Of a DNA stretch of 30,921 nucleotides, positions 4,220 through 30,431 are shown piece after piece. The DNA lies in the IMG/VR virus record IMGVR_UViG_3300032093_000572, positions 1-30,921 of that record. The stretch is one strand, 5' to 3'. Source of the DNA: a virus (Duplodnaviria > Caudoviricetes). Below the pieces are notes generated by a model. The model saw only the letters and a program-made list of their open reading frames with translations, was not told where the DNA came from and made no database searches. Numbering within the stretch: the stretch's first letter is position 1; each line of letters opens with the position of its first letter. The translations under genes were made by a program, and so were the position numbers.

Positions 4220-7200
4220 ATGCCTACTTTTTTGGTTAGTACCCCTACTGGGCGTCAATTTGAAGTAGATGGGGCTGATGAGAACGAAGCAATCAGCTCA
4301 CTCCAAAATTACTTAAGTGGGGAAGCTGCGCCGCAACGGCGCACTAGACTTACCCCCGAGATGATCGATGCGTACCAGCAATCGCTGGGCGCACCCGCGC
4401 TTAACCAAAGTTCTATTTCTGACGAAGACTTAAAAAGTAAGTTAGCCGAGTACGAACACAAGCCGGGGTTCTTGGAAAGCCTTGGCAGTGGGGCGGAACG
4501 TAGTTTCTCTCAAGCCGCCGTACTCAAAGACCAGCTACTCTCCTTGGGCGCGAAGGGTCTCGGTTACGACGACTACGCCAAGCAAAAGCTGGACGAGGCT
4601 GCTGCTAAACAAGAAGAAATCCAGCAGACCAACCCCGCGCAGTTTGAGTCTTATAAAGACGTTAACTGGAGCAATTTGCCCGCTTACGCTGGAGAAAGCA
4701 TCGGCGAGCAAGCATTCAACGCGCTCACAATGTTGGGGTTTGGCGGGGTAGGCGGCGCTATCGGGAAGCGCGTTGTCACTTCAGCGGCGGAAAAAGCTGT
4801 GGCCGAGATGGCTGCACAGCGTGCGGCGGCAGGAGCGGCGGAAGCCGCAGTCCCTGCGGTAGAGCGACTCGTTGCCCGTGAAGCGGCCAAGGGTGCGGGG
4901 GTGGGCGGTAATATCGGGATGTACCTTGGGTCTTTTGGACTTAACGCCGGGGATACTTACCAAGGCATCTACGACAAGACGGGGGAAATGGCCCCCGGTG
5001 CGTCAGTAATCGGCGCTTCGATCAACGGCTTCCTCGACTCCATCGTCCCGGCGCGGTTCGTCAAAGCCCTGCGTGAGACCCCAACGCTCCGTGCAGAAGT
5101 TGCCGCTCGCATCGCTGCGGGCAAAGGCGTTGCAGAGGGTCTGCTCCCTGCGGTGAAAGCCGGGGCAATGGGTGCGCTCAAGGGCGGCGCGTTAGAACCT
5201 ATCACGGAAGTGGGGCAGGAAATTGTCAATAAGCTCGCCGAGGACATTGTCGGCGAGTCGCAAGAGAAGTGGGGTTCCGAAGACTTCGACCGCTTTATCA
5301 ACTCGGCTGCTAAATCCATCGCCCCCGGTATGCTCTTTGGTTTTGGCGAAGGGGTAGGGAAGCAGTCAAACAGACGCGCCATTGCAGATCGACTAGAGCA
5401 GCAACAACAGGCTCGGCAGTTCGACGCCGACCAGCTTGCCTCCGAGGAAGAACGCAAGCAGCAGTTGTACGAGGGGATCCCAGAGCTTGAGCAACAGGTC
5501 CAGATGCTGACTGAGGCGCTCAACCTACCAGAGAACCGCGCCCGTGCGGGGGAACTCAACTTCAACTTGCGGGAAACCCAGCAGCAACTGAACGACCTGT
5601 CGCAAGAACTTACCATCCTTGAGATGCCCCGCAATCAGCGGGCGCAGTTCTACGCTCAACAGCAGCAAGAAGAAGAAATCGCCCCGGAAGAGGAGGAAGC
5701 GCCGCCGACTGCGCCTGCGCCCGTTACGGCTAGAAGCGTGCTTGAGCCGCTGGGTGTTTCTGCGGAAGATATTAAGGGGCTGAACGTAAACCCCAACGCT
5801 CCGCTCCGTGGGAACGCCGCGCAACGAGTCGCAGACTTTATCGACCAGTGGCGGGTGAATCCCAATCTATCTCTTGAGCAAGCCCAAGCGGCGGATGCGG
5901 CACTTGCAGAACTCCCGGAACTCCAGTCGGACGCCATCAGCGTAGGTCAAAGGGAAGACCGGGAAGCACACCTTGCTGCGGCTCCCGACCTTGTGCCTAA
6001 AAAGATGGAGAACTGGTACAAAGCCGCGCAACAGCACGGGTTAACGCCCGAATCCCCAGACGCATGGCAGCAACTGTCTGATGCCCGCTATGCCGCTAGG
6101 AGCCCCTCAGTCCGTGCGGCGTTGACCGAGAAACTGAAGGCCGACTTCCCGGAACAGGAACAAGGGGAGGCCGACCGCGTTGCCGCGTTGACCGAACAGC
6201 AGCGGATGGCGGAGGAGCAAGCTAGAGCCGAGGCGGTGTTCAAGAAGGCGCAGGATGCGACGTACCGCAAACAGGTTAAGGACACCATCGCTAACTTCTT
6301 GGCAATAGCTAAGGAGCAACAGCGGAAACTGGAGGCGGCGCGGAAGCAAGCGGCGCAAGAAGGTAAGCTTAAGGCCGAGCAGGACGCGCAAGCGGGGACG
6401 CTGATCTCGGAGTTAGACAGGCACCTCAACTCCGACCTACCGGCGCTCACGCAGGCTCAGTTGGACGCCCCGGACAGCACCGCCGCTGCGGTCGCTTTGC
6501 GGCAGATGCGAGACACCATCGCCAAGAAACAGGAGGCGCTGAACAACTTAGCGCCCGTTGGGACCCGCCCGACCCCCCGCCCCGCGACTATTGCGCCGCC
6601 CAACATCACCGCTATGCAGACGGTCAGCGATGTGCTGCGTCATGCTGGGTTCCCCGGCGCGGCCAAGCCTAACGGGATGCAGCCCAACGCACCGCTCCGT
6701 GGTGCCACGGCGGAGAAGTTAGCTAACTTCCTACAGCGTATTAAGCCCGAGTCGGTTAAGGATGTCGCTCAAGGTGAGCGCATTGACGCGCTCAAAGAAC
6801 ACCCAGCGTTCGCCTTGGAGGAGATTGAGCGGACCAAAGCGGAAGATCACCAAGCGCATATTGAGTCGGCAGCGGGGCTTAGAAGAAGCCGGGAAGCGTT
6901 CCAAGCATGGCAGACGCAACTGCGAGGCGACTACAAGTTAGGGACCGATGCGGAAAAAGACCAAGCGGTCTACCGGGACCTGCGTACCGCACAGGGGGTC
7001 GCCCAAGACCATACGAAGAACCAGATTGAGAAATACATCTACAGCAGCCCCCCGCTGAAAAAGATTGCTGCGGAAGAGCAACAATCTGCGGGTCCGTTGG
7101 CGGAAGTCCGTGAGTCCCGTGCGGAGTCAAGGTCGGGAGCGGGGGCATTTTCAGAAGATGCGTTTCGTAAGGCAATGGGGGACGCGGTTAATTGGTCGGG

Positions 7201-10200
7201 GGATTACAAAACGCCCGGATATAAAAGCAAAGACAAATTAATTGAAATGCCAATTGCTGATTTTTTAACAATAGCGGACGATGGTTTTCAGCAAAAAAAC
7301 TATGATGATGTTTTAGCTCTTTTTAGAAAAGGAATTAAATTTAATGCTATACCACAATTATCACTTTTTCGTGACAAAGATGGTAATATTAGAGGACAAG
7401 GGCATGAAGGAAGACACCGCGCTCGTGTTTTGAGAGATAACGGATACGATACGATTCCCGTCAAATTATTAACGGATATTCGTTGGTCTGAACAATCAGA
7501 CCCTAAAAGTTTTGATTATTTGAAGAAGTGGCCGTCTAAAATCATATCTCAAGACGGCACCAAATCTATCCCTATGCTTGTTCCTCGCGAGCAGTCCATG
7601 ACTCCGTGGAGTCCTTCAACGAAAATCCGTGAGTCCCGTGCGGGGAAAGTAACAAAAAATCGCACGCCGGAACTTCAAGCTGCTGCCGAAAAATTAAAGG
7701 CGGGGGAAATCACCCGTGAGGATTACGCCCGACTTGTGAATAAATACAAGCCGGTAGTGCCGTATGAGCAAGTTCCGGCTCCAGCGTCCAACGCCGATAT
7801 GGAACAAGCGTTAGACAAACCCAAAGTTCCAAAAATTAATGCCCCGCGTGGTATGGCTAATGGAACGCCGGTTAAACTCCGATTAGATATTCCTGCGTAT
7901 GATAAACACAACACATGGATAGTAACTGTCCATGAAGGGAATAAACCGGGGTTCAAAGCAGAAGCGGTTATTGGATACACCAGCACTGCGGCAGCTACTG
8001 ATGTTACGTTTGGGTTAGAAACGGCGCAGGCTGGGTTAAATATCGCTGGGGGTAAACCGAAAGGCACTATTGCGACCATGAAGGGTAAGTGGCGCGACAT
8101 GACTCCCGAGAAAGCAAAAGCTCGCGCTGATGCTGCCATGAAAGACCCAGCTTGGCGTCAGATTGGTATGGATCCAGAACGTCATGGGTACTTCTATGAC
8201 CGCGAAACAATGCAGCCGATTACCCGCGCTGATGAAGTAATCCAGATTGGTCCGTTGGTTCTTGGGAAAAACGTCACCTACGGCAAACCGGACAATTTCC
8301 TATACTCCCGCGCTGCCGAAGGCTCCTCCACCAAGCCGACACCGGAGCAGGTGCGTAAGGTTATCGAAGACCGGATGGGGGCCAGTGCGGCTAATGTCAC
8401 CATCGCCCGCACGCCGAAAGAAGCTGGGGTAGATAACGTCAAGGGCATCCACCCGCTGACCAAGGGCGCGATCATCAACGGCAAGGCGTACCTGTTCACC
8501 GACAACATGCGTGTCGGTAAGGAATTTGGCGTGTTCCTGCATGAGGTCGGCGACCACCTCGGGATGAAGAAGCTAGTCGGCGAAGGGAACTACAACTTCC
8601 TTGTCTCGCAAGTTCAGAAGTGGGCCGACAAGAACGACGGATCGCTGGAGTCCAAGATTGCCCGTGCGGCTATGGAGCGCATCCCGCAGGGGACCAAGAA
8701 AGAAAGCGAATTGCTCGCCTACTTCATCGAAGAGGCGGTGGACAACTACGGGGTAAACCCGTCTGAGGTCCGAGACACTGCAACTCCGCTGGGGGCGTTC
8801 TTCCGCAAGATCATGGCGGGCATCAAGAACATCCTCAACAAGTTGGGGCTGTCACCGAAAGATCTTACGTCGCAAGACATTATCGACCTTGCGTATGGCG
8901 CGGCGCAGTTGGAGTTGTCGGGGCAAGTTAAGGGTAAGGGCACCTCGCTCTCCCTATCAAGCGATAAGAACATCAGCCCGTTGGGGTTCTACAGCGCGTT
9001 GGAATACAACCTCTCACGCCTGCCGACCAAGTCGGCCACGGCGGCTGGCTGGAAGGACGCGATCAAGGGCCTGCTCAACAAGGGGCTAGTCAAAGCCGAA
9101 GAGGTCGAGTGGTCTGGCATCAACGACTGGCTCGATCTCACGGAAGGCAAGATCACCCGTGAGCAAGTGCAGGACTACCTAGCCCAAGGCGGCGTGCAGG
9201 TAGAAGAGACGGTACTGGGTAGAGCAAAAAAGAAAGATGATAAACCGTTAACTTGGGGAGAATGGTCGGAACCTGACGAAAATGGGCATAAAGAAATGAA
9301 AGCCTCTTCGGGGTCAAAAATTATTTACAAACCAAAAAATTCAAACAGCGGACCGGGGACGCCGCTAAGAGACGACTATGTAGTTATAGACTCGAATGGT
9401 CGGCATCAAGGTACAGTAAATGATCTAGAACACGCTAAACAAATTACTTCAGCGTTTGAATCTAGCGCAGGGATGGGTGTAACTCCTACTAGATATAACC
9501 GTAATAATCTCGTTCTCCCCAACGGTAAAAATTACCGAGAAGTATTGTTGACATTACCAAGTAAAAAAGTAAAAGGACGCAACTACGGACATTGGGAACA
9601 AAGTAATGTTTTAGCCCATACCCGCCTTAATGACCGCGTCGATACAGACGGTAAGCGCGTGTTGTTTGTCGAAGAAGTTCAATCGGATTGGGGGCAAAAA
9701 GGTAAAAAAGAAGGTTTTGTTGTTTCACTTCCGCCGCTTAAAGAACTACCAAATGATGTAGTAGTTACAAAAAAATACAATGCTACAATAGACGAAGTTG
9801 AATATATTAAAGCCGAATTTACACGAATTAATAGAATAATAACAAATTTATTTGATGCTGCGGATTTTAATCCCGAAAAACGTAAAAAATATAACGCTAT
9901 TGTAGACGGAGAAAAAGGCGATAGATTCCTTGATCTTTCGCATAAATTTACAGATTTTAATTCCTATAACAGGATCGACCGAGTTCTAAATACGGTTCCT
10001 CATTCTGAGTTTTTAGAATGGCGTGAATTAATTAGAGAAATAGTTCCTACTGCGTTTGAAACAGACCCTTATGAATCGAGACAGATATGGGTTGCAATCC
10101 AAAGTAATGCACGAATTGGTACAGGCGAAACTAAAGAAGAAGCTAAAAAAGAGGCGCTTGACGTAATTAATGAAAATAGGAAATTTCCTGATGGGATTGC

Positions 10201-13200
10201 GTCCGCACCTTTTGTCACCAAGACCGAAGGCTGGGTGAACCTCGCACTTAAGCGCATAATGATCATGGCTGCGGAAGAAGGCTATGACAGCGTAGCTTTT
10301 TCTAACGGAAAGCAGAACGCAGATAGATACAATTTAGCTAATCACGTTGAATCGATACAAGTACTTAAGGAAGGGGAAGGATATTACGTCACCCCCACCG
10401 ATAAAGATGGGTATGAATTTCCTCCACAAGAAGCTAAAAACGCCGCAGAACTTGAGCGTATGGTCGGTGTAGAATTAGCAAAAAAAATTGTAAAAGATTT
10501 TAGTGGAAAACCCAATGATAGTTTTACCGCTATGCAAAACGAAGATTTTGAAACTTATGCTGTTTATAATCAAAATTTAGAACAAATTGGCCCCAAATTT
10601 GATGATTACGATCAAGCCGCAGATTATGCAAAAGATCTTCTCGCTGGTAGAGTAGTTCCTCCTAGAGTGTACAGTGGTTTAGATTTGGACATTGGTGGTG
10701 AAGGCATGAAAACCTTCTATGACCAAATCATTCCTTCTGCGTTGAAGAAGCTACTGCCAAAAGTTGATGGTGGAAAACTTCGTAATGTTAATATTGATTT
10801 TTCTGGGGATGCGTCTAATAACGAAGAATTGCCTTGGAACATTGCGGCTGTTCGCCGGATAATTCAAAGCGGTGGGGAAGTATACGCAGTTACGCATTAT
10901 GGGTCTGAAGAACAAATTAGATCGGAACAAGATTTAGAAGATATATTAGAATACGGAGAACCAAGAGGGTTTATATACGGCGATAAAGGAGAAACCCTTC
11001 CCCAACTCGGTTTCGACATTACCCCGGAGATGGTGTCCAAGATCGAAGGGGGCTTGCCGCAGTTCTCCCGCGCCCCGGAAGTCCGTGAGTCCCGCGCTCC
11101 CGGCGTTGTAGTCAACCCGCGTGCGCCATCGCCCAGCGTCATAGGCAACGGCACCGCACAGGGTCGGCAGCAGCTTGCCGACTACGCCTACGGTCGTATG
11201 GATACCGTGATGCGGAACACCCCGCAGTGGGGTAAGGCGACGATGGGCAAGGCGCTGGGCGAGTTGAGCAACATGCCCACCAGCGCGAGAAAGTTTGTCT
11301 ACTACGCGGCACAGCTTCCGCAGTTGGCCGACATGATCGACAAGACCAGCCCCAGTGCAGCGGCCCGCATCCGGGATCTGGGGGAAGTCCTTGCTGCGCG
11401 GAAGACCCGTGCGGATAAACGGAAAGCGTTCATCGAGAAAATCCTGCTTGACGGCAAAGCGGCAGTGGAGAAGTACACGCCCGCGCAGTTGGCTAAGTTT
11501 GAAGAAGTGACGCACAACCTGAGCCGGGAGCAGATTGATCCGTGGGATGCCGCTAACAAGACCCACCCGCTATCTCGACAATTCTATGCGTTGCCGAAAC
11601 CGTTGCAGGACATTTTTAGCTCGGTGGTCGCGGCGTACCGGCAGTTTGGGGATGAGTACCTCGACCACATGGAGAAGATCGCGGGGCCTGCGTTCTCTCC
11701 TGCGATGAAGATGCAGTACAAGATGCGGATGAAGCGGATCATGCCGTACCTCCCGTTGTTCCGCGAAGGCGACTTCTGGGTGGCGTACACCGACAGAACT
11801 GGTGAGGCTGTGGTCCGGGCGTGTGATACCGACCTTGAACGCAGTCAGGTGATGCGTGCAGCACAGGCGGCAGGGGCGACCGACATCCAGCCGTTCAAGC
11901 AATTGGCTGACATCAACCCCAACAACGTGAAGCCGACTCGGGAGTTCGCCCAGATTTTCAACCTGATGAAGGAAAAGGGAGTCGATGAGGCGGTGCAGGC
12001 TAAGGTCTACCAGACGCTCCTCCAGATGTTCCCGGCGAAGTCCATCATGCAGCAATTCCGCCCCCGTAAGGGGACGCTGGGTTACCGTGAGGACATCCTA
12101 CGGAACTTCGCCATCGTGGGTTCCCGCATGGCCGACAACCTCACGCAGTTTGAGTTCACCAAAGACATCGACAACGTCTACAGCGACTTGGGCAAGGAAC
12201 TGCTAAAGAGCGAGCGGTCCGGGGATGACGTTGCCGTTGACATGCTGAACGAACTGAAACAGCGGGAGAACTTCCTGCGGTATCCGGTGAACAGCAAGTA
12301 CGCCAACCTCGCCGCGTCTGCCAGCTACAACCAATTTTTGCTGGGTAATATTTCCTCGTCGGTGATGAACAGCACCAGCTTGGTGATGAGTACGTTGCCT
12401 GTTCTCGGCGGCGAGTACGGCTACGGTAGGACCGCCGCTGCGATGTCGAGAGCGTTGAGCATGTACGCCAAGGGTGGCCGGGACGACAACACCTCACTCA
12501 CTATCTTCGGTCGGCGGCTGTCCGACAAGACCTTCATGGGCGACTCGGCTCGGGGCAAGGCGTTAGAGAAATCCCGTCCTGACCTCAAGAAGCTCTACGA
12601 CACCGCAATATCCCGGCAGGCTATCCACCGTTCCGTGGGGCTTGAACTCCACGATATGAGGAAGATGGCGCTGTCGGAATACACCGGCTCGTGGATGAAA
12701 ATCAAAACGCTCTTAAGCTGGTTGTTCCAAAACTCGGAGCGGATGAACCGCGAAATTACTTTGCTTGCTGCGTATCAGTTAGAAATGGATGCGTTAGCGA
12801 AGCGCGGGATTCGCGGGGATGCGGCGACCAATCAGGCGATTGATAAAGCCATCAAGGCGATCACGTTCACCCAAGGCGTTGCCACCCCGGAGCTTGGTTC
12901 TCGGGCGCTTCAAGGCAATATAGGCAAAGTCATTGGTACGTTTAAGAAGTACCCCATGACCCAGCTTTACATGGTAGGCACGCTCTTCAACGATGCTATC
13001 CGGGGCGCAAGCGCCAAAGAAAAGCAGATCGCACAGAAACAGCTTCTGGGCATCATGGGTATGGGTTGGGCGTTTGCCGGGGTTAAGGGCCTGCCGCTCG
13101 TTGGCGGTATCTCATTTTTGGCCGAGATGATTATCGGCGACGATGATGAGCCATTCGACATAGACCAGTGGGCGCTGGAGTCAATGGGCAATCTGGGGTG

Positions 13201-13879
13201 GAACGGTCTGGTCAGTGATATGACCGGCCTCCGCATCAGCGACCGTGCGGCTATCGGCTCGTTCTTCCGTGAGGATAAAAAGCGGCTGCAAGAGCTTGGG
13301 TGGCAGTGGTATCTCGCGGAGCAGACCATTGGTGCGCCTGCCAGTCTGGTGAAGAATTGGATCGACGCGAGCGAACTATTCCAGCAAGGCTACACTTTGA
13401 AAGCGGCGGAACGCGCCTTGCCCCTGTTCATGAGCAACGCCATTAAAGCGGTTGATCAAGGCATCAACGGTATCGTCACCAAGGACGGCGTGCGTATTGC
13501 GGACGACCCGAGTACCAAGGACCTCATCATGCAGGGTATTGGGTTCCGAAAGGAATCGACTGCACGGGCGCAGGATGTCAACACTATCGAGAACCAAATC
13601 ACCACAGCGGTTAACGCCCGCAGGACTCAGGTCCTCAATAACCTCTGGCGGTTCCGTAACGATCCTGAGCGGCTGGCAGAAGCCCGTGAAGCTAGGGACG
13701 ACTTCAATCGCAGTCGGTACGGGCAGCTACCGAAAAACCGTATCACTGCCGAGACTATTGAGAAGTCCAAGAAGCAACACAAGGTGGTGGACAAAGCGGC
13801 GGCAGCGCACGCTGGTATGGCCCCGGACCAAAGGTACAAAGCCGCGTTCCGAGAGTTGGAAGAATCGGTGGACAGATAA
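4220..13879 (+). CDS. Giant polyvalent (ejection-type) protein, 3219 aa, with ParB-like, zincin-like metallopeptidase, EEVQSD-motif and PLxRFG-like domains
   Basis: Uninterrupted ORF with a GGAG SD. Motifs: GHEGRHRARVL (ParB-like, ~7400), LRLDIPAY (~7880), FLHEVGDHLG...ELLAY (HExxxH-E, 8540), VLFVEEVQSDW (~9670) and YLPLFREGDFWV (PLxRFG-like, ~11750). Confidence 0.85.
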   Translation: MPTFLVSTPTGRQFEVDGADENEAISSLQNYLSGEAAPQRRTRLTPEMIDAYQQSLGAPALNQSSISDEDLKSKLAEYEHKPGFLESLGSGAERSFSQAAVLKDQLLSLGAKGLGYDDYAKQKLDEAAAKQEEIQQTNPAQFESYKDVNWSNLPAYAGESIGEQAFNALTMLGFGGVGGAIGKRVVTSAAEKAVAEMAAQRAAAGAAEAAVPAVERLVAREAAKGAGVGGNIGMYLGSFGLNAGDTYQGIYDKTGEMAPGASVIGASINGFLDSIVPARFVKALRETPTLRAEVAARIAAGKGVAEGLLPAVKAGAMGALKGGALEPITEVGQEIVNKLAEDIVGESQEKWGSEDFDRFINSAAKSIAPGMLFGFGEGVGKQSNRRAIADRLEQQQQARQFDADQLASEEERKQQLYEGIPELEQQVQMLTEALNLPENRARAGELNFNLRETQQQLNDLSQELTILEMPRNQRAQFYAQQQQEEEIAPEEEEAPPTAPAPVTARSVLEPLGVSAEDIKGLNVNPNAPLRGNAAQRVADFIDQWRVNPNLSLEQAQAADAALAELPELQSDAISVGQREDREAHLAAAPDLVPKKMENWYKAAQQHGLTPESPDAWQQLSDARYAARSPSVRAALTEKLKADFPEQEQGEADRVAALTEQQRMAEEQARAEAVFKKAQDATYRKQVKDTIANFLAIAKEQQRKLEAARKQAAQEGKLKAEQDAQAGTLISELDRHLNSDLPALTQAQLDAPDSTAAAVALRQMRDTIAKKQEALNNLAPVGTRPTPRPATIAPPNITAMQTVSDVLRHAGFPGAAKPNGMQPNAPLRGATAEKLANFLQRIKPESVKDVAQGERIDALKEHPAFALEEIERTKAEDHQAHIESAAGLRRSREAFQAWQTQLRGDYKLGTDAEKDQAVYRDLRTAQGVAQDHTKNQIEKYIYSSPPLKKIAAEEQQSAGPLAEVRESRAESRSGAGAFSEDAFRKAMGDAVNWSGDYKTPGYKSKDKLIEMPIADFLTIADDGFQQKNYDDVLALFRKGIKFNAIPQLSLFRDKDGNIRGQGHEGRHRARVLRDNGYDTIPVKLLTDIRWSEQSDPKSFDYLKKWPSKIISQDGTKSIPMLVPREQSMTPWSPSTKIRESRAGKVTKNRTPELQAAAEKLKAGEITREDYARLVNKYKPVVPYEQVPAPASNADMEQALDKPKVPKINAPRGMANGTPVKLRLDIPAYDKHNTWIVTVHEGNKPGFKAEAVIGYTSTAAATDVTFGLETAQAGLNIAGGKPKGTIATMKGKWRDMTPEKAKARADAAMKDPAWRQIGMDPERHGYFYDRETMQPITRADEVIQIGPLVLGKNVTYGKPDNFLYSRAAEGSSTKPTPEQVRKVIEDRMGASAANVTIARTPKEAGVDNVKGIHPLTKGAIINGKAYLFTDNMRVGKEFGVFLHEVGDHLGMKKLVGEGNYNFLVSQVQKWADKNDGSLESKIARAAMERIPQGTKKESELLAYFIEEAVDNYGVNPSEVRDTATPLGAFFRKIMAGIKNILNKLGLSPKDLTSQDIIDLAYGAAQLELSGQVKGKGTSLSLSSDKNISPLGFYSALEYNLSRLPTKSATAAGWKDAIKGLLNKGLVKAEEVEWSGINDWLDLTEGKITREQVQDYLAQGGVQVEETVLGRAKKKDDKPLTWGEWSEPDENGHKEMKASSGSKIIYKPKNSNSGPGTPLRDDYVVIDSNGRHQGTVNDLEHAKQITSAFESSAGMGVTPTRYNRNNLVLPNGKNYREVLLTLPSKKVKGRNYGHWEQSNVLAHTRLNDRVDTDGKRVLFVEEVQSDWGQKGKKEGFVVSLPPLKELPNDVVVTKKYNATIDEVEYIKAEFTRINRIITNLFDAADFNPEKRKKYNAIVDGEKGDRFLDLSHKFTDFNSYNRIDRVLNTVPHSEFLEWRELIREIVPTAFETDPYESRQIWVAIQSNARIGTGETKEEAKKEALDVINENRKFPDGIASAPFVTKTEGWVNLALKRIMIMAAEEGYDSVAFSNGKQNADRYNLANHVESIQVLKEGEGYYVTPTDKDGYEFPPQEAKNAAELERMVGVELAKKIVKDFSGKPNDSFTAMQNEDFETYAVYNQNLEQIGPKFDDYDQAADYAKDLLAGRVVPPRVYSGLDLDIGGEGMKTFYDQIIPSALKKLLPKVDGGKLRNVNIDFSGDASNNEELPWNIAAVRRIIQSGGEVYAVTHYGSEEQIRSEQDLEDILEYGEPRGFIYGDKGETLPQLGFDITPEMVSKIEGGLPQFSRAPEVRESRAPGVVVNPRAPSPSVIGNGTAQGRQQLADYAYGRMDTVMRNTPQWGKATMGKALGELSNMPTSARKFVYYAAQLPQLADMIDKTSPSAAARIRDLGEVLAARKTRADKRKAFIEKILLDGKAAVEKYTPAQLAKFEEVTHNLSREQIDPWDAANKTHPLSRQFYALPKPLQDIFSSVVAAYRQFGDEYLDHMEKIAGPAFSPAMKMQYKMRMKRIMPYLPLFREGDFWVAYTDRTGEAVVRACDTDLERSQVMRAAQAAGATDIQPFKQLADINPNNVKPTREFAQIFNLMKEKGVDEAVQAKVYQTLLQMFPAKSIMQQFRPRKGTLGYREDILRNFAIVGSRMADNLTQFEFTKDIDNVYSDLGKELLKSERSGDDVAVDMLNELKQRENFLRYPVNSKYANLAASASYNQFLLGNISSSVMNSTSLVMSTLPVLGGEYGYGRTAAAMSRALSMYAKGGRDDNTSLTIFGRRLSDKTFMGDSARGKALEKSRPDLKKLYDTAISRQAIHRSVGLELHDMRKMALSEYTGSWMKIKTLLSWLFQNSERMNREITLLAAYQLEMDALAKRGIRGDAATNQAIDKAIKAITFTQGVATPELGSRALQGNIGKVIGTFKKYPMTQLYMVGTLFNDAIRGASAKEKQIAQKQLLGIMGMGWAFAGVKGLPLVGGISFLAEMIIGDDDEPFDIDQWALESMGNLGWNGLVSDMTGLRISDRAAIGSFFREDKKRLQELGWQWYLAEQTIGAPASLVKNWIDASELFQQGYTLKAAERALPLFMSNAIKAVDQGINGIVTKDGVRIADDPSTKDLIMQGIGFRKESTARAQDVNTIENQITTAVNARRTQVLNNLWRFRNDPERLAEAREARDDFNRSRYGQLPKNRITAETIEKSKKQHKVVDKAAAAHAGMAPDQRYKAAFRELEESVDR
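7101..7124 (+). repeat. Junction repeat copy 1 (CGGAAGTCCGTGAGTCCCGTGCGG; EVRESRA)
   Basis: 18 bp identical to 7626-7643 and 19 bp identical to 11076-11094. Confidence 0.9.
7626..7643 (+). repeat. Junction repeat copy 2 (TCCGTGAGTCCCGTGCGG; IRESRA)
   Basis: Exact match to 7107-7124, offset 519 bp (in frame). Confidence 0.9.
11076..11097 (+). repeat. Junction repeat copy 3 (CGGAAGTCCGTGAGTCCCGCGC; EVRESRA)
   Basis: 19 bp identical to 7101-7119, offset 3975 bp (in frame). Confidence 0.9.
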
Positions 13880-13914
13880 AAGAAAACCCCGCTAAGAACG
13901 GTCCTAGCGGGGTT
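13878..13914 (-). terminator. Intrinsic terminator between the convergent arms, with the U-tract on the - strand
   Basis: Stem AACCCCGCTA (13885-13894) / TAGCGGGGTT (13905-13914), followed on the - strand by TTTTCTTTT. Confidence 0.85.
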
Positions 13915-13946
13915 AAAACACAACGAACACAAAAAACAACAGAGGT
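13878..13946 (-). ncRNA. Candidate ~69-nt small RNA with a 5' anti-SD (ACCUC) and a GU-rich seed
   Basis: Bracketed by TTGCCT-N17-TATATT and an intrinsic terminator. No ORF. The 5' part is complementary to phage mRNA leaders at 18328-18347, 29254-29270 and 30224-30237. Confidence 0.5.
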
Positions 13947-13952
13947 GCGCGA

Positions 13953-13981
13953 AATATACAGGGCTATCCCAAGTTAGGCAA
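13953..13981 (-). promoter_or_regulatory. Putative sigma70 promoter at the 3' end of the primase gene
   Basis: TTGCCT (13981-13976), 17-nt spacer, TATATT (13958-13953). An A at 13946 sits at the expected +1 distance. Confidence 0.55.
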
Positions 13982-16753
13982 CAACCCCTCGATCCCAAAG
14001 AAGTCTTCTTTCTCAAACGTAAACTCGTGGACCCGCACCGCCGGGGAGTCTGAGTTGGTCCCCTTGCCCATCCGCTTCTTGGTTTCACCGATATAAGTCC
14101 CCCGGTCCCGGAAGTCCTTCAGCAAATCCTTGGCGCTCACCTGCCGCTCCATGCAAAAATCTTTGAATGGTTTGGTGCCAATAAATATCCGCTTGGTATC
14201 CGGCTCGACCCGGACAAGTAGTTGTCGGCGCGGGGTTAGAATCGCCATTGGGGATAGGACCGACCGTCTGTCCATCACGGCGTTGATGACCAAGATGCTG
14301 TCTTGGTTAGCGTTCAAAAACTCACCAAGGATGTCGGCGGAGTCTGGTACTGCCTCGTTCATGTCCCGGCGCAACGATGGAATCAAGCCATCTATCACCC
14401 AGTCCAGCACAGGCTTAGGCGCAATCCCGTGAAGGTCTAAACTATGGGACACCGTGCCGCCGACTAGGTTGGCTGCAATGGTCGCCGCCCAGTACCGCTC
14501 CTTGCTCACCAGCCGTGCCCGCTTGTCGATGTACTCCTGCATGGCGATCTGTTGGCGCTTGATGTCGTCTCGGGACTTCACCACATAGTCCATGTACAGC
14601 GGGCCAGCAACGCCGAAGTTATTGGCGAGCGTTACTTCAAACAACTGATACGCATCCGACTTGCTCATATTGTTGAGTGAGTCAATTTTGTACTCAATAA
14701 GTCGCATTAGTTCGCCGTTCGCTGTGGCTTTACCAGAAGAGATTTTATCCGCGATAGAGGAGTTGGAAGTTGCCAGCGCGATGGTCGCCCATGTCGTGGT
14801 GTTCTTCCGCTCCATGTTCGACTGCGACTGCATCCGCCCCGGACCCTGCCCCTGAGACACCGCGTAGGCCAGCTTAGACGCCACCTCGGGCTGGATGTTG
14901 GTTAGCTCATCCATTGTATAGGGCAGGTTGTTGAGTACGCCGAGGCGGTGGATCTTGTGGGCGTAGGTGTCGCCCTCGGTGGACAGGAGCTTGCTCGGGT
15001 GCCCGTAGACGCTGTTGACCATCCGCATGATGGTCGTCTTCCCCGTGCCTGACTGCGCGTTGACCAGCGAGATCAAAGCGCCGTTGTACCCACTGAACTT
15101 CATCAGGGGCGCACCGAATGCGGTGAAGAACGCAAAGGCAAACGCTTCCGCGCCGGGGCGGCTGTACGGCTCCACGACCCGCTTCCAATTGTCCAAGGTG
15201 CCACTGCTGTACAGCAAGGAGGATACCGATTCGGTTATTTCGGATGGCGGGCTGTACCGCGTCTCCGACACGCCGATCTCGTTGGTGCCTAAAATAAACT
15301 TGGTGTCGCCCTCGGCCCAGCCCATCTGGTTGTGTAGCACCTCGGTGTCGAGCATCACTTGCTGCTGCTTGGCGCACGAGATGAGATACCACATCAGCCT
15401 GCTCAGGGCGTCGCCCGCGCTCAAGACACCATTGGCCGACAGCACCTTGCGTAGCTCGTCCTTGGAGGTCATAGCGGATAGCGGGATAACGAACTCCCGT
15501 GCCTTCTCCCTTGGTAGGTGCAGCCGTGCCAACGCTAGGTCGCCCCGGATGGAGTCGGTCATGCGCTTGACGAGGTAGAGGGAATGCTCGTAGACCATTT
15601 CCGACTCGTCGTTGTTCTGGATGTAAATAGCGCCAGATTTGGCTCTGAAATATGGGCTAGGCAGCACCGGGATGTCGTACTCGACAGGACTGCCGCCCTC
15701 CTCGATCTCAACGATAACTTCCTCATCGCTCCCTTGAACCTCAATGCCGAGAACGATGGGACTCTTAATTTTCCCCTTGTGTGGGCACCGCTTGCACCCG
15801 CCGGGGTTGTGAAACTCTATGGTCTCGCACTTGTATGGCTTGTCCACCAAGTCTTCTGACTTCCGCACCGTCGCCTCAAAGCTATAGCCCGAGTGCTTGT
15901 CAGAGATAGCGTGGATGCCGATTTCAAAATCAACGCAGTTCCGGGCGATGGATAGCCCAGCCCGCCACAGGTTGTAGTCCAGCCCTTCCTGATTGGTCGC
16001 GATGTGTACCAACTGCTGGCACCCGTCGCCACGGGACGAGCGATCCAGAATCAACGCGAACCGCTTTTGCTTGTCGTCAGACAGCGACTGCATCAATGGG
16101 CTCGGTCCCGCCTTCAGATAATCAGGCGGCTCAGACAGCAGCACCGTCACCCCGACACACTGCCGGATCTCATCTATCCCGGACGCCTCACCCTCAAACA
16201 GCACCCCCACAGGAACCGCAGGGTCGCGCTTGTAGTTGGACGTACCGGGGACCCGCAGGATGCGAGCGGCGTCGGCGGTGACTGAAGCGTCAGCGTGCAG
16301 CGCGTGTTCCTTGCACAGGGTCTTCAACCGCTCCGCGACCGGCTTCCACTCGGCCAAACGGATGGGGGCTTTTAACGCCCAATAAACATGGACCCCGTAC
16401 CCGGAGGATACGATGGTCGGACTGGGTAATCCCGTCTTATCCAAGAAAGCCGCAAACGCTTCCAGCCCCGCAGTCTGGTCGGGGTAGTCCTTGGTCGGAC
16501 CACAGTCGATGTCGAGGTAAAACGATTTGAGTACTTGGACGTTGATGGTCTTGCGACCAACCGCAGGATCTTCAAAGCTCGCACAAGCAAAATACGAGTT
16601 AAAATTCTCGGCGTCTAACTGAGATGATTTCTGAACAGCGTTGTCGATATTGTCGTAAAAATAGGTCTGGGGGTTATGGCCTGCTTTTAACCCCACTATG
16701 CAATACACCCCCTCCTCGGGGAGTACATGCGAGAGAAATTTCGTTGTGTCCAT
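13964..16753 (-). CDS. DNA primase-helicase fusion (RepB/AEP-like primase + DUF927 + P-loop ATPase)
   Basis: Primase motifs FYLDIDCG, SSGYGVHVYW and DAARILRVPGTSNYK. Cys cluster C..CPH. Walker A AQSGTGKTT and Walker B YTMDE. ATG at 16753 is preferred over the GTG at 16783, which overlaps the upstream gene. Confidence 0.85.
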   Translation of the reverse strand: MDTTKFLSHVLPEEGVYCIVGLKAGHNPQTYFYDNIDNAVQKSSQLDAENFNSYFACASFEDPAVGRKTINVQVLKSFYLDIDCGPTKDYPDQTAGLEAFAAFLDKTGLPSPTIVSSGYGVHVYWALKAPIRLAEWKPVAERLKTLCKEHALHADASVTADAARILRVPGTSNYKRDPAVPVGVLFEGEASGIDEIRQCVGVTVLLSEPPDYLKAGPSPLMQSLSDDKQKRFALILDRSSRGDGCQQLVHIATNQEGLDYNLWRAGLSIARNCVDFEIGIHAISDKHSGYSFEATVRKSEDLVDKPYKCETIEFHNPGGCKRCPHKGKIKSPIVLGIEVQGSDEEVIVEIEEGGSPVEYDIPVLPSPYFRAKSGAIYIQNNDESEMVYEHSLYLVKRMTDSIRGDLALARLHLPREKAREFVIPLSAMTSKDELRKVLSANGVLSAGDALSRLMWYLISCAKQQQVMLDTEVLHNQMGWAEGDTKFILGTNEIGVSETRYSPPSEITESVSSLLYSSGTLDNWKRVVEPYSRPGAEAFAFAFFTAFGAPLMKFSGYNGALISLVNAQSGTGKTTIMRMVNSVYGHPSKLLSTEGDTYAHKIHRLGVLNNLPYTMDELTNIQPEVASKLAYAVSQGQGPGRMQSQSNMERKNTTTWATIALATSNSSIADKISSGKATANGELMRLIEYKIDSLNNMSKSDAYQLFEVTLANNFGVAGPLYMDYVVKSRDDIKRQQIAMQEYIDKRARLVSKERYWAATIAANLVGGTVSHSLDLHGIAPKPVLDWVIDGLIPSLRRDMNEAVPDSADILGEFLNANQDSILVINAVMDRRSVLSPMAILTPRRQLLVRVEPDTKRIFIGTKPFKDFCMERQVSAKDLLKDFRDRGTYIGETKKRMGKGTNSDSPAVRVHEFTFEKEDFFGIEGLLPNLG

Positions 16754-16763
16754 GTAAATTCTC

Positions 16764-17003
16764 TTACTGCGTCCATCCCCCACTCACCAATAGCGCAGTT
16801 ATTTTTTCTCTGTAATGTTTTCTCGGTTCTACTTTGCCGGTGAACCACTTGTATATCGTCATTTTGGAGACCCCAAAATACTCCGCCATATCAATGGCGG
16901 AGATGTCTCGGCTAATACAATACCGGCCCAAGAGAACACCGAGGCTATCAGACGCGGAGCGGTTCACCTCCACGATTCGCTGACTGTAACCTCGGTTGTC
17001 CAT
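16764..17003 (-). CDS. Small Cro/XRE-like HTH protein
   Basis: ISAIDMAEYFGVSKMTIYKWFTG helix-turn-helix pattern. TAATG coupling with the upstream gene. Confidence 0.8.
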   Translation of the reverse strand: MDNRGYSQRIVEVNRSASDSLGVLLGRYCISRDISAIDMAEYFGVSKMTIYKWFTGKVEPRKHYREKITALLVSGGWTQ

Positions 17004-17908
17004 TACTCGTCGTCCACTTCCGTAGCGCGTTTCTTGTTGGCGAACTTCGCCAATACCGCGCTAACGTCAGGTTTCGCAGGCACCACATCGGCGGGCTTCT
17101 TCGCCTTGACCTTCGGCTCCTCATCCTCGTCCACCTCGCCGCCGTTGGCCTTGATGGCGTCCTTCAGCGACGGTAGTGCCTTCTGGCCCTTGTCGGCCTG
17201 ATACACCGTCAGCGTCACCGCCAGCTTGGCCTCCGGGGACTGCCCAAACTCAATCAACTTGGGCATCGCTTCCCGTGACGGGAACCCAATCGGCGAGAAG
17301 AACATCTTCGGGGTGTCCGCGTCATCGTCGAACGAGATGCGGGTGATCAAGCGGTCGATGCTGTGGTTCTGGCTCGCAACGTACTTGAAGTACTGCTGGT
17401 AAGGCATGTGGGCAATGTCGCCCTTGCCAAACAGCGAGGTCGCGGGCAGTTCCAGCATGTGAACGCCGGAGTCCAGATCGTCCGCCAAGACCACCGCGAT
17501 GCGCTGCTTGAACCGGCAGGCGCGGGTCGTGCCCTGACCACTGCCAGCGATGTTCATCGGGCAGTCGTTGCAGTTGCTGTGCTGCGGGTTCTCCACACTG
17601 GGGTGCGGGGCCTTGCTGTCAGCCGACCAGCAAGTCGGCGGCGCGGCATCCGCAGTCGGGTCGTAGGTCCCGGCGTAGTAGGTCCGGGAAACGTCCTTTG
17701 CCACGTTGACGATGACTACGTCAAGGGCGTCCTTCTTCTTCGCCACTTCCTCACCGTTGACGATCAGGCGGAACACCTTGCCCCGGATAGAGATGCGCTT
17801 GTTAGTGCCCCCCATCCTCTGCATCAGACCCTTGGTCAGTTCAGACTGGCCTTCACTACGGATGTAGTCGGGCACCATACCAGCATTAAACGGAATCATA
17901 TCGCTCAT
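17003..17908 (-). CDS. Putative ssDNA-binding/annealing protein
   Basis: RISIRGKVFR and PPTCWS.D...C..CP.NI.GSG...RACR motifs, acidic C-terminus, AGGAGA SD, and position in the replication module. The function is inferred. Confidence 0.65.
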   Translation of the reverse strand: MSDMIPFNAGMVPDYIRSEGQSELTKGLMQRMGGTNKRISIRGKVFRLIVNGEEVAKKKDALDVVIVNVAKDVSRTYYAGTYDPTADAAPPTCWSADSKAPHPSVENPQHSNCNDCPMNIAGSGQGTTRACRFKQRIAVVLADDLDSGVHMLELPATSLFGKGDIAHMPYQQYFKYVASQNHSIDRLITRISFDDDADTPKMFFSPIGFPSREAMPKLIEFGQSPEAKLAVTLTVYQADKGQKALPSLKDAIKANGGEVDEDEEPKVKAKKPADVVPAKPDVSAVLAKFANKKRATEVDDE

Positions 17909-17919: not shown

Positions 17920-18321
17920 TTAACTTTTCTTACGAATGGTAATTGCGTACTCTTTGTCCATATTCAGACCCTCGGGATGGAGATCGGGATTCTCCTCCAT
18001 AAAGGTCTTCATATTCGTCTGGTGGATACGCTTCTCCAGAAGTTCAAACGCATCGTTATCCTTCATAAACCGATGAAAGGCCGACCAGTCGTTGGTCCAA
18101 TACTTGGTCTTGACGGTGCGGATAACGGTGCCGTAGTTGGTGCGGATGCTGTCCGCGCCTAGTTCCTTACACAGGTCGTTCATCGCTGTGGTGAGCACCT
18201 GCATTTCTTTATCAAGTTGCTCAACTTTGAGCGCCACATTGCGCTCAAGCTCCCGCTTCTCATCGCGTAGAGCGACGTAAGCCTCTACGAGGGTGTCAAC
18301 CCCGTATTCATTAGATTCCAT
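17920..18321 (-). CDS. Conserved phage replication-module protein (N-terminal coiled coil), 133 aa
   Basis: GAGGT SD. SIRTNYGTV...DW..F..F motif, of a type commonly seen next to SSB-like genes. Confidence 0.75.
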   Translation of the reverse strand: MESNEYGVDTLVEAYVALRDEKRELERNVALKVEQLDKEMQVLTTAMNDLCKELGADSIRTNYGTVIRTVKTKYWTNDWSAFHRFMKDNDAFELLEKRIHQTNMKTFMEENPDLHPEGLNMDKEYAITIRKKS

Positions 18322-18355
18322 GTTTTTACCTCGTGTTTGTTGTCGTGCGAATCGA

Positions 18356-18384
18356 ATCTTAGGAAACTAAATTTACTCTGTCAA
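18356..18384 (-). promoter_or_regulatory. Sigma70 promoter for the 18321/SSB/primase genes
   Basis: TTGACA (18384-18379), 17-nt spacer, TAAGAT (18361-18356). Confidence 0.75.
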
Positions 18385-19937: not shown

Positions 19938-20147
19938 TTATGTTTCGTATTTAAAGTATTTACTTAAGTGTTTTGCGTATTTAACAGAATTTCTCTTGTA
20001 CAGTTTGGCGTTAACACACGCTTTGCATGTTGCTTGGTGCCCATCTTTAGTTTTTGATTTATGTGAGTATGATTCAAGATTTTTATTTTCTTTACATACA
20101 GGGCATTGTTTTACACCGTATGAAACATATGGATACCCAAATGACAT
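19938..20147 (-). CDS. Small CxxC...CxxC zinc-binding protein, resembling the N-terminal domain of HNH homing endonucleases
   Basis: KQCPVCKENK...CKAC motif. Visibly AT-rich relative to its neighbours. TAATG coupling. Confidence 0.65.
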   Translation of the reverse strand: MSFGYPYVSYGVKQCPVCKENKNLESYSHKSKTKDGHQATCKACVNAKLYKRNSVKYAKHLSKYFKYET

Positions 20148-20566
20148 TATTTAAATACCACTATTGCGCTAGGGAACGGGGCGCTATTTTTTGCGCCTCC
20201 AAATTTAAGTCGGCCCCGGATGAACGTCACTTCTCCGTAGGGAAGCACATAGTCGTGCCACCATGCGGTGTCGGTCCGGGCTGGGAGCAGGCACACAACA
20301 AGAGCCCCGTTGTCTCGGGCGCTTTCGTAGGCTTTCTTCACCCAGTATTTAATGTCGCGCCCGTAAGGGGGGTTCATCCAACATCGGCCCATCCAATATT
20401 TGGTAAGGCCGTTGTCTTCCTTTGTATAGAAGTCTGCACACTTGGCGTTTTCTGCGGTCGCGCAAACATCCAAGGTGAATCGATAGGTCGCCATTAACTT
20501 GTCAAAGAAATCTTGTGGAGTCGCCCACTCATCCGTGGCGCTGCTGAAGTGTACGGTGGTGTCCAT
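20147..20566 (-). CDS. Phage DNA N6-adenine methyltransferase (phage Dam family)
   Basis: DEWATPQ, LDVCA, WMNPPYG, LLPARTDTAWW and RGRLKFG motifs. Confidence 0.92.
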   Translation of the reverse strand: MDTTVHFSSATDEWATPQDFFDKLMATYRFTLDVCATAENAKCADFYTKEDNGLTKYWMGRCWMNPPYGRDIKYWVKKAYESARDNGALVVCLLPARTDTAWWHDYVLPYGEVTFIRGRLKFGGAKNSAPFPSAIVVFK

Positions 20567-21537: not shown

Positions 21538-23355
21538 TTAGCATTCACCGTAGTTCCTTCCAATACCACTCTCGCAATTCAAAGGCAAGCCCTCTGCCCA
21601 GACGGGCGTTTCGCGGAAACACTCCTCGATGAACGCCTGCGCCCGCTCGGCTTCTGCTTCCGGGGCGACGATGGCAATAGCGTCGTGGACCGTCATGACG
21701 GGGCGGTACTCGTATGAGATGTTGACCATCTGCTCGGCTATGACGCACCGCGCTATAGCCTGCGTGACGTTCTCAATCACCTTGCCACCGTAGATCCGCG
21801 TCCTGCCGTTCCGGGTCTTGTAGCTGAACTGCCCCTCGGAGTCCTTCTGCAAGTCGTCATACCCCAGACTGTATCCGCTCGGCAGCACGAAGCCATCCGC
21901 CCCAAGATGCAACGCCTCCGGTCGCACGCCGATGGGGGCTGTTCTGCCCTCCAACATCGCCTCAAGGCACCGCTGGCCCTGCTTCCACAGCGCCGGGATC
22001 GCGGAGTATGTTTCACGGTAAACATTGATGATGTTCTGGCATTCCTCCAACTCCAACGTCACGCCAGAAGTTTTGAGGGACGATTGAAACTTCGCAGCAC
22101 CAAGGCCGTACCCACAACCAAGTACTACCGTTTTGCCTAGAAATCGTTCCTCCTTATTAATTTCATCAATAGGCTTGTTATAAATTTTAGACGCCATGAT
22201 TTTGTAAACGTCTTCCCGGTTGGCGAACGCCTGCACGAGGTCATCCTGTCCTGCCAACCACGCCAACACCCGCGCCTCGATCTGGCTGGAGTCGCAGTCG
22301 ATGATCACATGGCCCGCCGGGGGCAGGATGGCGCTCTTCAACGTACTGTCGCCCCGGCTTGGGAGGTTCTGGAGGTTGAGCTTGTCGGTGCCACCCCACC
22401 GGCCAGTGTGGGCCGCATAGTAGCGAAGGGGAACTGGTAAGGACCCGCGCTTGGCAATGCCGATGAACCGCTCGGTGCGCGTCTCCTCAAGCGTAGATCG
22501 GGTGCCCAACCGCGCCGCTACCACAGCTTGCACCCGCTCGTCAGGATGCTCCAGCAACTCCTTCAGCCCCTCGTCGGACTTAGCCAGCGCGTAGGTCTCC
22601 TTGCCCGTCGTCGGACTGATCTTCAGCGGCGGTTCTACGCCCAGCCCCCGCAGGAGGTCGGCAAACTTGGGGTTGGAGTTAAGTAGCTCAGGCGTACTCT
22701 CGCACGCTTGCAATAACTCGTACTTGCGCTCGCGCACTTCTTCAAGGTGCTGCTCCAGCAACGGGAGGTCTAACTCCAGCACCGGCTCGCTGAACATCTT
22801 GATCGTCAAGTTAATGACTTGAAGCTCCCCGGTGCGCGTTAACGCAGAAACCTTGTCGATGTAAACATCGAGTAGACTCCGGGTCAGGTCGCAGTCGTTG
22901 CGGCAGTACGCCCCATACCGCTGAAGCTCGTCCGGAGTGAAGTCCTGTCGGCGCTTGCCAAGCGCATTGATGACCTCATCCCCCTTGGCTCCCAGCCCGT
23001 GTCGCTCGGCAGCGGCCTTGAGGCTACCGCTAACCTCCAGCCCGTCTATCGCCCGCGCCAGACTGAGCGTATCGACCCACATGTGGGGTCGGATGTCGAA
23101 AATCCACGATAAAATTGCGGCGTCGAACATGGCGTTATGTGCAACGGCGGCGGCGTTGTGCCAGTCGTAGGTGTTGAGAAAGGTTTTGGTTTCTTCCCGC
23201 GTTCCGCTGAACCACTGCGCGTCTTCGTCGTTAACCTTGACCCCCACGCCAATGACTTCAAACCGTTCGTCGCGGATGTACTCCTCCGTTGTCACCTTTG
23301 ACAACGAATACTCCCGGTCGTAGTAGGTTTCAAAGTCGATTGTTAGGATCTTCAT
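21538..23355 (-). CDS. Family A DNA polymerase with 3'-5' exonuclease domain
   Basis: Exonuclease motifs IDFET, AHNAMFD and YCRND. Polymerase motifs HTGRWGG, NLQNLP, DSSQIEAR, RFLGKTVVLGCGYG and TVHD. Confidence 0.95.
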   Translation of the reverse strand: MKILTIDFETYYDREYSLSKVTTEEYIRDERFEVIGVGVKVNDEDAQWFSGTREETKTFLNTYDWHNAAAVAHNAMFDAAILSWIFDIRPHMWVDTLSLARAIDGLEVSGSLKAAAERHGLGAKGDEVINALGKRRQDFTPDELQRYGAYCRNDCDLTRSLLDVYIDKVSALTRTGELQVINLTIKMFSEPVLELDLPLLEQHLEEVRERKYELLQACESTPELLNSNPKFADLLRGLGVEPPLKISPTTGKETYALAKSDEGLKELLEHPDERVQAVVAARLGTRSTLEETRTERFIGIAKRGSLPVPLRYYAAHTGRWGGTDKLNLQNLPSRGDSTLKSAILPPAGHVIIDCDSSQIEARVLAWLAGQDDLVQAFANREDVYKIMASKIYNKPIDEINKEERFLGKTVVLGCGYGLGAAKFQSSLKTSGVTLELEECQNIINVYRETYSAIPALWKQGQRCLEAMLEGRTAPIGVRPEALHLGADGFVLPSGYSLGYDDLQKDSEGQFSYKTRNGRTRIYGGKVIENVTQAIARCVIAEQMVNISYEYRPVMTVHDAIAIVAPEAEAERAQAFIEECFRETPVWAEGLPLNCESGIGRNYGEC

Positions 23356-23950
23356 TGCTGTTGTACCTCTTACCCCGAATCCAAGACGTTGCTATCCACT
23401 TCTGCCCGCTGATGATAGGAAGTCCTGCATGTTGGGTTTTCATGTTTAAGTCGAAAATATATTTATAGTCAAAAAACAACGCCGCACCTTGCTTGGGCAC
23501 GATGCGAATGTCTAGCTTTGTGAAGTACGTTTCTCCCCCTTCAAAGTCGTCGTTGAGGTAAACAATCAATGTCGCAATGCGGTCGTTGGGGTCCTCATGG
23601 ATACCGGGGTGTGTGAAGAAATCCTCATGGGGTTTGAACTCCTGCCCAACGTCATACCGCTGGATCTGCGGCTCCTCTAAATTCTCTGTAGTGAACTCAT
23701 CGAGAAACCAGAAGAACGGTTTAACTACTTTGTAGTTCCTGTCAGTTAAACCAAACCGATTCTCCCTATCATAGTGAGTATGGCAAGTTCTCCACTCACT
23801 TTGAATAGATTTCTTAGTCGTCCCGTCATACCCCAACGCAGGCTCAAACGTAATCCCCGAATTTAAGATTGCATCGCATTCCTCCGGGGTGTACAAATTT
23901 TTAAAGATAAAAATCTTTGGCTCTGCTTTGATGATATCAACGTCAATCAT
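23330..23950 (-). CDS. 2OG-Fe(II) oxygenase, prolyl 4-hydroxylase-like
   Basis: QIQRY..GQEFKPHED, RIATLIVYLND..EGGETYF and HAGLPI..GQKWIATSWIR (HxD...H...K). ATG at 23950 has a GGAGG SD and an ATGA overlap. Confidence 0.9.
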   Translation of the reverse strand: MIDVDIIKAEPKIFIFKNLYTPEECDAILNSGITFEPALGYDGTTKKSIQSEWRTCHTHYDRENRFGLTDRNYKVVKPFFWFLDEFTTENLEEPQIQRYDVGQEFKPHEDFFTHPGIHEDPNDRIATLIVYLNDDFEGGETYFTKLDIRIVPKQGAALFFDYKYIFDLNMKTQHAGLPIISGQKWIATSWIRGKRYNSNEDPNNRL

Positions 23951-25628: not shown

Positions 25629-25639
25629 CTTTTTACCTC

Positions 25640-29246: not shown

Positions 29247-29281
29247 TCTCTGTCTCCTGTGTTGCGTTCGGTATGGGGTCG

Positions 29282-30215: not shown

Positions 30216-30239
30216 TTATTTTTACCTCCTGTTTTTTCC

Positions 30240-30268: not shown

Positions 30269-30431
30269 GTTTTTTGTGAGTTTAAGGCCCATTAGCACAG
30301 TCAAGGTTCCCTGTCAAGTGTTTTTTGGGGGGTGTATAAGGGGCAATTGGCGGGGGATTTAGGGGCTTAAACTAGCGAGGGGCGGGGGTATTGTGGCACT
30401 GTTCCAAGGATTGTTCCAAGTGTGGCGCGTG

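Follow-up and report, generated by a model that had tools for sequence, protein, structure and literature searches.

What occupies the gap at which the two gene arms of a virus genome converge, and can it act on genes that lie kilobases away? The question is raised by IMG/VR virus record IMGVR_UViG_3300032093_000572 (Duplodnaviria; Caudoviricetes), all 30,921 nucleotides (nt) of which were analysed and are called the window here; this 30.9-kb record corresponds to about half a genome, and complete relatives measure 59-67 kb, with direct terminal repeats in three of them. The plus-strand (late) arm, "late" denoting the opposite strand and not a measured timing, ends with the gene of a 3219-residue virion protein resembling DarB (4220-13879). 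The minus-strand arm carries small early genes, a family A DNA polymerase, an exonuclease, an SNF2 helicase and then an operon composed of p133, p301 (predicted to encode a single-strand-binding (SSB)-like protein), a helix-turn-helix (HTH) gene and, as the last gene of the replication arm, a DUF927 primase-helicase (13964-16753, minus strand). We propose that the gap holds a conserved unit making a small RNA (sRNA) that is complementary to, and covaries with, the ribosome-binding sites (RBSs) of early genes and would block their translation in trans, a reading to which we assign a probability of roughly two in three. That a real transcribed RNA pairs with these sites appears highly probable to us, and that it represses, as a timer or a copy-number brake, appears probable with somewhat less assurance.

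The predicted unit lies on the minus strand. Its -35 box TTGCCT (13976-13981) falls within the final codons of the primase-helicase, its -10 box TATATT (13953-13958) follows after a 17-nt spacer, and this spacing places the 5' end of a 69-nt RNA (13878-13946) at A13946, 7 nt past the -10 box. The RNA would open with the seed ACCUCU (13941-13946), directed against the Shine-Dalgarno (SD) sequence and complementary to GAGGU in the start regions of p133, p118, p65 and p82, and would end in an intrinsic terminator (13878-13914), in which a 13-pair hairpin spanning 13914-13885 is followed by a U-rich tail that runs to 13878, overlaps the stop codon of the late gene and has its U-tract on the minus strand only. 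The terminator hairpin is the sole structure predicted in the 69 nt (z -4.5; 0 of 200 shuffles), the first 33 nt being predicted as unpaired. An original prediction, made from the letters of the window, had described this promoter, start, length, hairpin and tail and the lack of an open reading frame (ORF), and every element was recovered where it had been placed. The promoter is a 9/12 match, and promoter-like sites number 13 against 9.1 ± 3.0 in shuffles, so that it is not significant alone. As far as sequence and conservation can tell, its own promoter, its intrinsic terminator and the lack of an ORF are features of the class of trans-encoded base-pairing sRNAs.

Comparison with relatives gives the unit more weight. 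Loci were defined as stretches around helicase relatives in IMG/VR, and among the 133 that reach the helicase stop, a promoter-RNA-terminator unit was called in 85, none was called in 45 and 3 were too short; the loci are redundant, the calling used a promoter filter, and miscalls occur in both the called and the uncalled groups. The original prediction had staked itself on the presence of the element in relatives, which is borne out by the 85 loci and not by the 45. The layout behind the primase-helicase spans helicase identities of 35-100%: close relatives (68%) keep the unit in an 85-97-nt gap, and distant relatives (35-47%) have a small ORF between helicase and unit, with the promoter overlapping the end of the ORF. 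This intervening ORF (about 12800-13000 in L125) is conserved in most relatives of 35-47% identity, encodes about 65-75 residues, and is absent from the window and the 68% clade. Predicted RNA lengths range from 46 to 98 nt, and the stem ends 4-11 nt from the late-gene stop in all 32 units having that gene. An A-run before the stem was found in 0 of 35 units, and thus only the minus strand is terminated here. The late arm is likewise without a U-tract terminator at 13885-13914, as in 35 relatives, so that late transcription may extend through the unit and yield transcripts that serve the RNA as an antisense sink.

The promoter itself bears a mark of constraint. All seven non-coding junctions of the window type that were listed start with TTG. 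Among representatives of the largest clade, the Leu codon in the -35 box is TTG in 15/15, against 10/41 at three other Leu positions, and the Arg codon that follows it is CGN in 15/15, against AGR in 18/43 elsewhere. As these two codons are fixed while other Leu and Arg positions vary, selection would act on the DNA and not on the protein, and the codon pattern indicates that the -35 box is under selection. Promoter scores average 7.0, compared with 4.5 after shuffling and 4.2 on the opposite strand. In single folds, 29 of 35 RNAs have a short 5' hairpin, with two-sided changes in three of its four consensus pairs; the window RNA lacks this hairpin, and in one clade the seed sits in the loop of a hairpin. 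These data also bear on the source of the RNA, which could arise mainly by cleavage of the p133-SSB-HTH-helicase message at its 3' end, the promoter being incidental, and exert feedback on p133, with which the operon opens. The unit does share the terminator of the operon, p133 is its best target, and CarZ is described as having the same geometry for carAB (PMC7398697). We consider such processing improbable as the main source, given the synonymous constraint on the -35 box, the start of the 5' hairpin 5-7 nt past the -10 box in most relatives and the targets outside the operon; both RNA sources could coexist.

The RNA covaries with its main predicted target. RNA bodies differ widely between relatives, yet their unpaired, pyrimidine-rich stretch tends to complement the p133 RBS region of their own genome. 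The test comprised 52 curated pairs of RNA and p133 leader, clustered at 85% (k = 35) and at 65% (k = 11), with energies computed by ViennaRNA duplexfold and our own scripts rather than IntaRNA. L159 and L070 (terminator miscalled in the small ORF), L119 (start miscalled) and L032 (5' hairpin taken as the terminator; a member of a non-matching clade that G014 represents in the 13-record test below) had been dropped, and in L042, L058, L068 and L078 the start was assigned manually. Own pairs averaged -22.9 kcal/mol, against about -16.3 for permuted pairs, which corresponds to z values of -9.5 and -4.7 for the 85% and 65% clusters, and runs of at least 9 perfect pairs were found in 18/35 own combinations against 13/934 cross combinations. 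The perfect runs are centred on -14 to -5 of the p133 start, that is, on the SD and the spacer, and the complements measure 17 nt in L029, 13-14 nt in the clade of L046, L058 and L083, and 12 nt in L019 and L118. Six control genes (hth79, helicase, p98, exo220, pol605 and p82) gave energy z values of -1.5 to +1.7 and no family-wide effect, and therefore the covariation is not due to genome composition; the effect was weak for p301 (z -2.4 to -0.4) and moderate for the SNF2 helicase (z -4.3 to -2.6). Records fetched after the test also have p133 complements, of 9 nt (G018), 10 nt (G011, G015, G017 and L322), 11 nt (G012) and 12 nt (L292). Another record of 87 kb (G009) has two p133 homologues and is possibly chimeric. 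The comparison of this intergenic region among relatives, for which the original prediction had proposed an alignment, revealed both a conserved layout and seed-target covariation, and short complementarity to distant mRNA starts, held by covariation, is what trans-encoded base-pairing sRNAs display.

The same pairing could serve another purpose, namely RNA-coded immunity or exclusion. A resident genome, whether in a carrier state or of the phage that entered first, would continue to make the RNA and silence its own early RBS motif or that of an incoming twin, and phages would fall into immunity groups according to their seeds, much as c4 separates P1 from P7. Seed and target differ among related phages yet remain matched, and the heteroimmunity of P1 and P7 is described as resting on c4, which pairs around an RBS (PMC12197685). 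There is, in addition, a near-palindrome resembling an operator, TTGACnnnGT(A/C)AA, over the -35 box of the p133 promoter (18384-18372, minus strand); it is found in 26 of the 43 p133 leaders having a TTGAC box and not at the sRNA promoter, and the HTH protein encoded in this operon possibly uses it as an operator. Neutral co-drift likewise yields changing seeds, one scan of GTDB genomes (600 candidate stretches) returned no relative, and no integrase was found among the 37 ORFs scanned in the window, which holds about half the genome. Immunity thus appears an unlikely purpose, if a conceivable one.

The matches to the RNA are not confined to p133. Thirteen longer records were compared, with starts called by a simple script and G007 omitted as a near twin of G014. 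Starts with at least 9 perfect pairs to the RNA of the same genome numbered 36/392 in the early/replication arm and 2/246 in the late arm (p 3e-6), the corresponding cross-pair counts being 76/4704 and 25/2952. Without p133 the early-arm count was still 28/379 (p 7e-5), and the early excess was positive in 13/13 records. Taken together, layout, covariation and early-arm matches strongly support, across the family, the central idea of the original prediction, a trans-acting anti-RBS RNA against the phage's own early and replication messages. The arm bias also bears on the suggestion that the RNA is a general anti-SD, mimicking the end of 16S rRNA and dampening host translation, with the phage matches as a by-product. 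CCU occurs in 31/35 RNA bodies and UCCU in 29/35, as such a function would have it, but the full CCUCC is present in only 2/35, the matches reach into phage-specific flanks, and starts of the same genome's early arm are favoured over those of other phages, with no excess at late starts; we give this explanation hardly any credence.

Within the window, the original prediction had pointed to three leaders, those of p133 (18328-18347), p65 (30224-30237, minus strand) and p99 (29254-29270, minus strand), and all three stretches are present there. They rank fairly high: the three promoter-first genes pair more strongly than the 31 other window genes (p = 0.019), p65 and p99 rank 6/33 and 2/33 among window starts (10/34 and 1/34 in a second ranking), and with accessibility, in a gene set without p99, p133 ranks 2/33 and p65 5/33. 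The best window target with accessibility is the p118 start region (25629-25660, minus strand), which 1.6% of shuffles equalled. The minus strand of the window has four copies of the word GAGGTAAA, each 9-13 nt upstream of an ORF start (p65, p82, p118 and p133), and the 5' end of the predicted sRNA is the complement of its GAGGT core. Of the three leaders, that of p133 has emerged as the conserved target; those of p65 and p99 remain candidate targets that are not significant alone, and homologues of these two genes were not found among the loci searched. It is the comparison with relatives that lifts the resemblance of the three leaders above chance.

A number of observations weigh against the proposed anti-RBS function. 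In the window, the pairing is no better than that of shuffled RNA: 58%, 13% and 27% of 500 dinucleotide shuffles paired equally well with the p133, p65 and p99 leaders, 21% of 1000 shuffles equalled the three summed, and the window's own p133 pairing ranks 11/52 among the leaders, with the weaker ones. The asymmetry between G:U and C:A mismatches, by which pairing at the RNA level on this strand can be tested, was 17 to 10 and not significant (p 0.15). Only 8/35 promoters beat shuffles singly, in units that had been filtered for promoters. The early-arm matches are unevenly spread, as G011, G012, G017 and G018 supply 25 of the 36 and G005, G008 and G014 none. The clade of L032, L041, L044 and L057 has the unit without a p133 match; no complement to the respective p133 leader lies at the junction in the 44-48% clade or the L154 group, nor, by a simple pattern, in L321 (54%) or the 33-35% group (L324-L343); and in five distant cultured relatives (Rollin, RHph_TM3_14A, Xp15, Effie and KPP25) the junction complement to a p133-like leader is at most 7 nt.

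Part of this evidence would suit the absence of any regulatory RNA, with the hairpin merely terminating the replication arm and the match being an inverted copy of a phage-specific leader motif, with a role at the DNA level or, on the plus strand, in binding a protein or serving as a decoy. In accordance with that idea, the wobble asymmetry is not significant, the window fails the shuffle test, early leaders within one genome share a motif, and the late arm, having no U-tract terminator here, may read across the unit. It would leave unexplained the constrained promoter that points into the unit, the covarying 5' hairpin and the clades with the seed in a hairpin loop, and we regard it as quite improbable.

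Several junctions deserve mention in their own right. Those of L032, L041, L044, L057, G007 and G014 have a promoter, a 5' hairpin and a C-rich loop, and match neither p133 nor any other early start. The convergent junction of Pseudomonas phage KPP25 (L348, 14466-14627) contains two terminator-like hairpins on the same strand about 50 nt apart, and the spacer between them has a 9-nt complement to the gp71 start that may be due to chance. The convergent junctions of Xp15 (L346, 17524-17985) and Effie (L347, 16605-16906) have several repeats of a word like CAGAGCGC. The nearest cultured phages are distant, with helicase identities of at most 30%; blastn of the junction against cultured phages found nothing, and a scan with P0008 gave no locus. 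DNA metagenomes carry the stretch, and the three runs with contigs over the junction are freshwater or lake samples; one such contig has 14 differences over 890 nt, one of them inside the unit with the hairpin intact, which is too few for a test of conservation.

A second target in the window's clade is likely to be the start of the primase-helicase gene itself. The G/U-rich stretch of the sRNA (13918-13927, minus strand), which also matches the C/A-rich leader of p133 imperfectly, is a perfect 10-nt complement to nt 5-14 of the primase-helicase coding sequence (16740-16749, minus strand; codons 2-5), a match that the original prediction had missed and that 1.2% of 1000 shuffles equalled. Comparable matches at the helicase start measure 8 nt in L005, 7 nt in L113 and 9 nt in L012, and across the six-member clade of the window the matching reached a permutation p of 0.0014, found post hoc. 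The true start of the gene is likely to be ATG 16753 rather than GTG 16783.

How such an RNA would work can be outlined from these predictions. Host sigma70 RNA polymerase would transcribe it from the modest promoter at the primase-helicase end, and it would accumulate with infection time and genome copy number; no RNA polymerase was found among the 37 window ORFs scanned. It would cover positions of about -14 to -5, where SD and spacer lie, on the p133-SSB-HTH-primase-helicase message and on other early messages having the phage's own extended SD motif, so that ribosomes would be shut out and the synthesis of early and replication proteins would drop. Late genes, without the extended motif, would escape, and in the window's clade the G/U-rich 3' part would likely pair in addition with the first primase-helicase codons. 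More tentatively, and with more doubt than confidence, the extended SD could be a private "dialect" read by one RNA, which would turn off the whole early programme, spare the virion genes and, as the dialect differs between relatives, create immunity or exclusion groups without a repressor protein. The relatives offer natural pairs of RNA and target by the dozen, already carrying compensatory changes and ready for reporter tests, even without a host; these pairs may serve as natural, near-orthogonal sRNA-RBS parts, and they open to reporter testing the shut-off of early and replication genes in a phage without its own RNA polymerase.

The genes around the unit fit a replication setting. The p133 operon starts from a promoter TTGACA-17-TAAGAT (18356-18384, minus strand), followed by a leader with a C/A-rich stretch and the SD GAGGT (18322-18347, minus strand); in the largest clade (e.g. 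L125, L118 and L142), p133 leaders have a small inverted repeat, like a stem-loop, between transcription start and SD, with apparent compensatory changes as judged by eye. The p133 product (17920-18321, minus strand) resembles Mu Gam and Sipho_Gp157 proteins (Pfam PF22709, E 4e-7, above the cut-off), and the PHROG label "minor head protein" was rejected, the gene lying in the replication operon and matching Gam/Gp157-like Pfam families. The p301 product (17003-17908, minus strand) is predicted to have an OB fold (AlphaFold pLDDT 77); in VIA-align its model is closest to the phiC31 RDF chain (Z 8.3, rmsd 3.7, 147 aligned), followed by T4 gp32 (Z 5.4) and RB69 gp32 (Z 4.9), from which we infer an SSB function for the modelled protein. 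Foldseek with p301 and p133 gave nothing at E<=0.001, and a PDB sequence search with p301 gave no credible match. A small HTH protein of 79 residues (hth79; 16764-17003, minus strand) completes the operon. Elsewhere in the window, an early 99-residue ORF has a poly-Glu tail that exceeds 35 residues, encoded by a long purine repeat (28950-29065, minus strand). The AT-rich non-coding stretch that closes the early arm (30300-30700), with repeated TGTTCC/GGAACA words and several promoter-like sites, is possibly an origin or genome-end signal. A 2OG-Fe(II) oxygenase gene (23330-23965, minus strand) and a gene resembling a DNA methyltransferase (20147-20566, minus strand) near the polymerase are rare among the fetched loci and point to possible DNA modification.

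Probably, then, these loci, from a large family of uncultured aquatic phages, hold a real family of phage sRNAs, in which, as judged from the genomes compared, seed and target coevolve with unusual clarity and the predicted targets are arm-specific. No Rfam family matched at gathering level in the window or six related loci, and four sub-threshold matches (E<=10) were rejected. The largely open-access literature covered describes neither this RNA nor any anti-RBS RNA directed at several early genes of the phage that encodes it. Four supplementary files of Fremin et al. 2023 (PMC10690425) had no match by contig number or by two motifs, the remainder of that source may list the RNA unnamed, and its DUF927 rows are RNAs upstream of the gene (two of three rows). 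Few phage sRNAs have known targets, and those reviewed come mostly from temperate model phages (PMC12197685); candidate noncoding RNAs of virulent phages have been described without assigned functions (PMC10914365).

Among known systems, the c4 antisense RNA of P1 and P7 also pairs around the RBS of a message of its own phage, namely the ant message, which belongs to the immunity region of a temperate phage (PMC12197685). The predicted RNA resembles it as a short phage-encoded RNA that pairs at an RBS of its own phage, with a specificity that varies among relatives and, in one clade, a loop-presented seed. Unlike c4, it is encoded at a convergent junction, at least 4 kb from its targets, and its matches include several starts of early and replication genes; its predicted targets are the Gam-like p133 and these other starts instead of an antirepressor message, and c4 was neither matched at the Rfam gathering score in the window and six loci nor among the four matches at E<=10. 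Lambda OOP, which has its own promoter, and P22 sar are antisense RNAs to one phage gene each, PreS targets host dnaN, and VpdS acts via Hfq on phage and host mRNA levels (PMC12197685); with all four, the predicted RNA would share the property of a short phage RNA that affects phage development. In Vibrio cholerae, RNase E releases CarZ and OppZ from the transcripts of metabolic operons of the bacterium; CarZ requires Hfq and pairs with the leader of the operon's first gene (PMC7398697). Like them, the unit lies at the 3' end of an operon, shares its terminator and is predicted to pair with start regions of that operon; it differs in the separate promoter under apparent selection, in targets beyond the operon and in its phage-replication setting. 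GcvB uses a G/U-rich stretch to pair with C/A-rich leaders, and a similar arrangement is seen in the window's clade only; in contrast to GcvB, the family-wide pairing centres on SD and spacer and not on an upstream enhancer, and identity with GcvB (RF00022) was rejected at 10.7 bits against a gathering score of 42. A functional parallel is T4 RegB, a protein endoribonuclease that cuts GGAG/U in the SD sequences of early messages (PMC3014915). Phage-encoded inactivation of early messages at the SD is the same job as that proposed here, but the predicted agent is an RNA, which would act by base pairing with an extended SD specific to the phage; if the dialect idea were true, this RNA would be the RNA counterpart of T4 RegB in a widespread group of aquatic phages.

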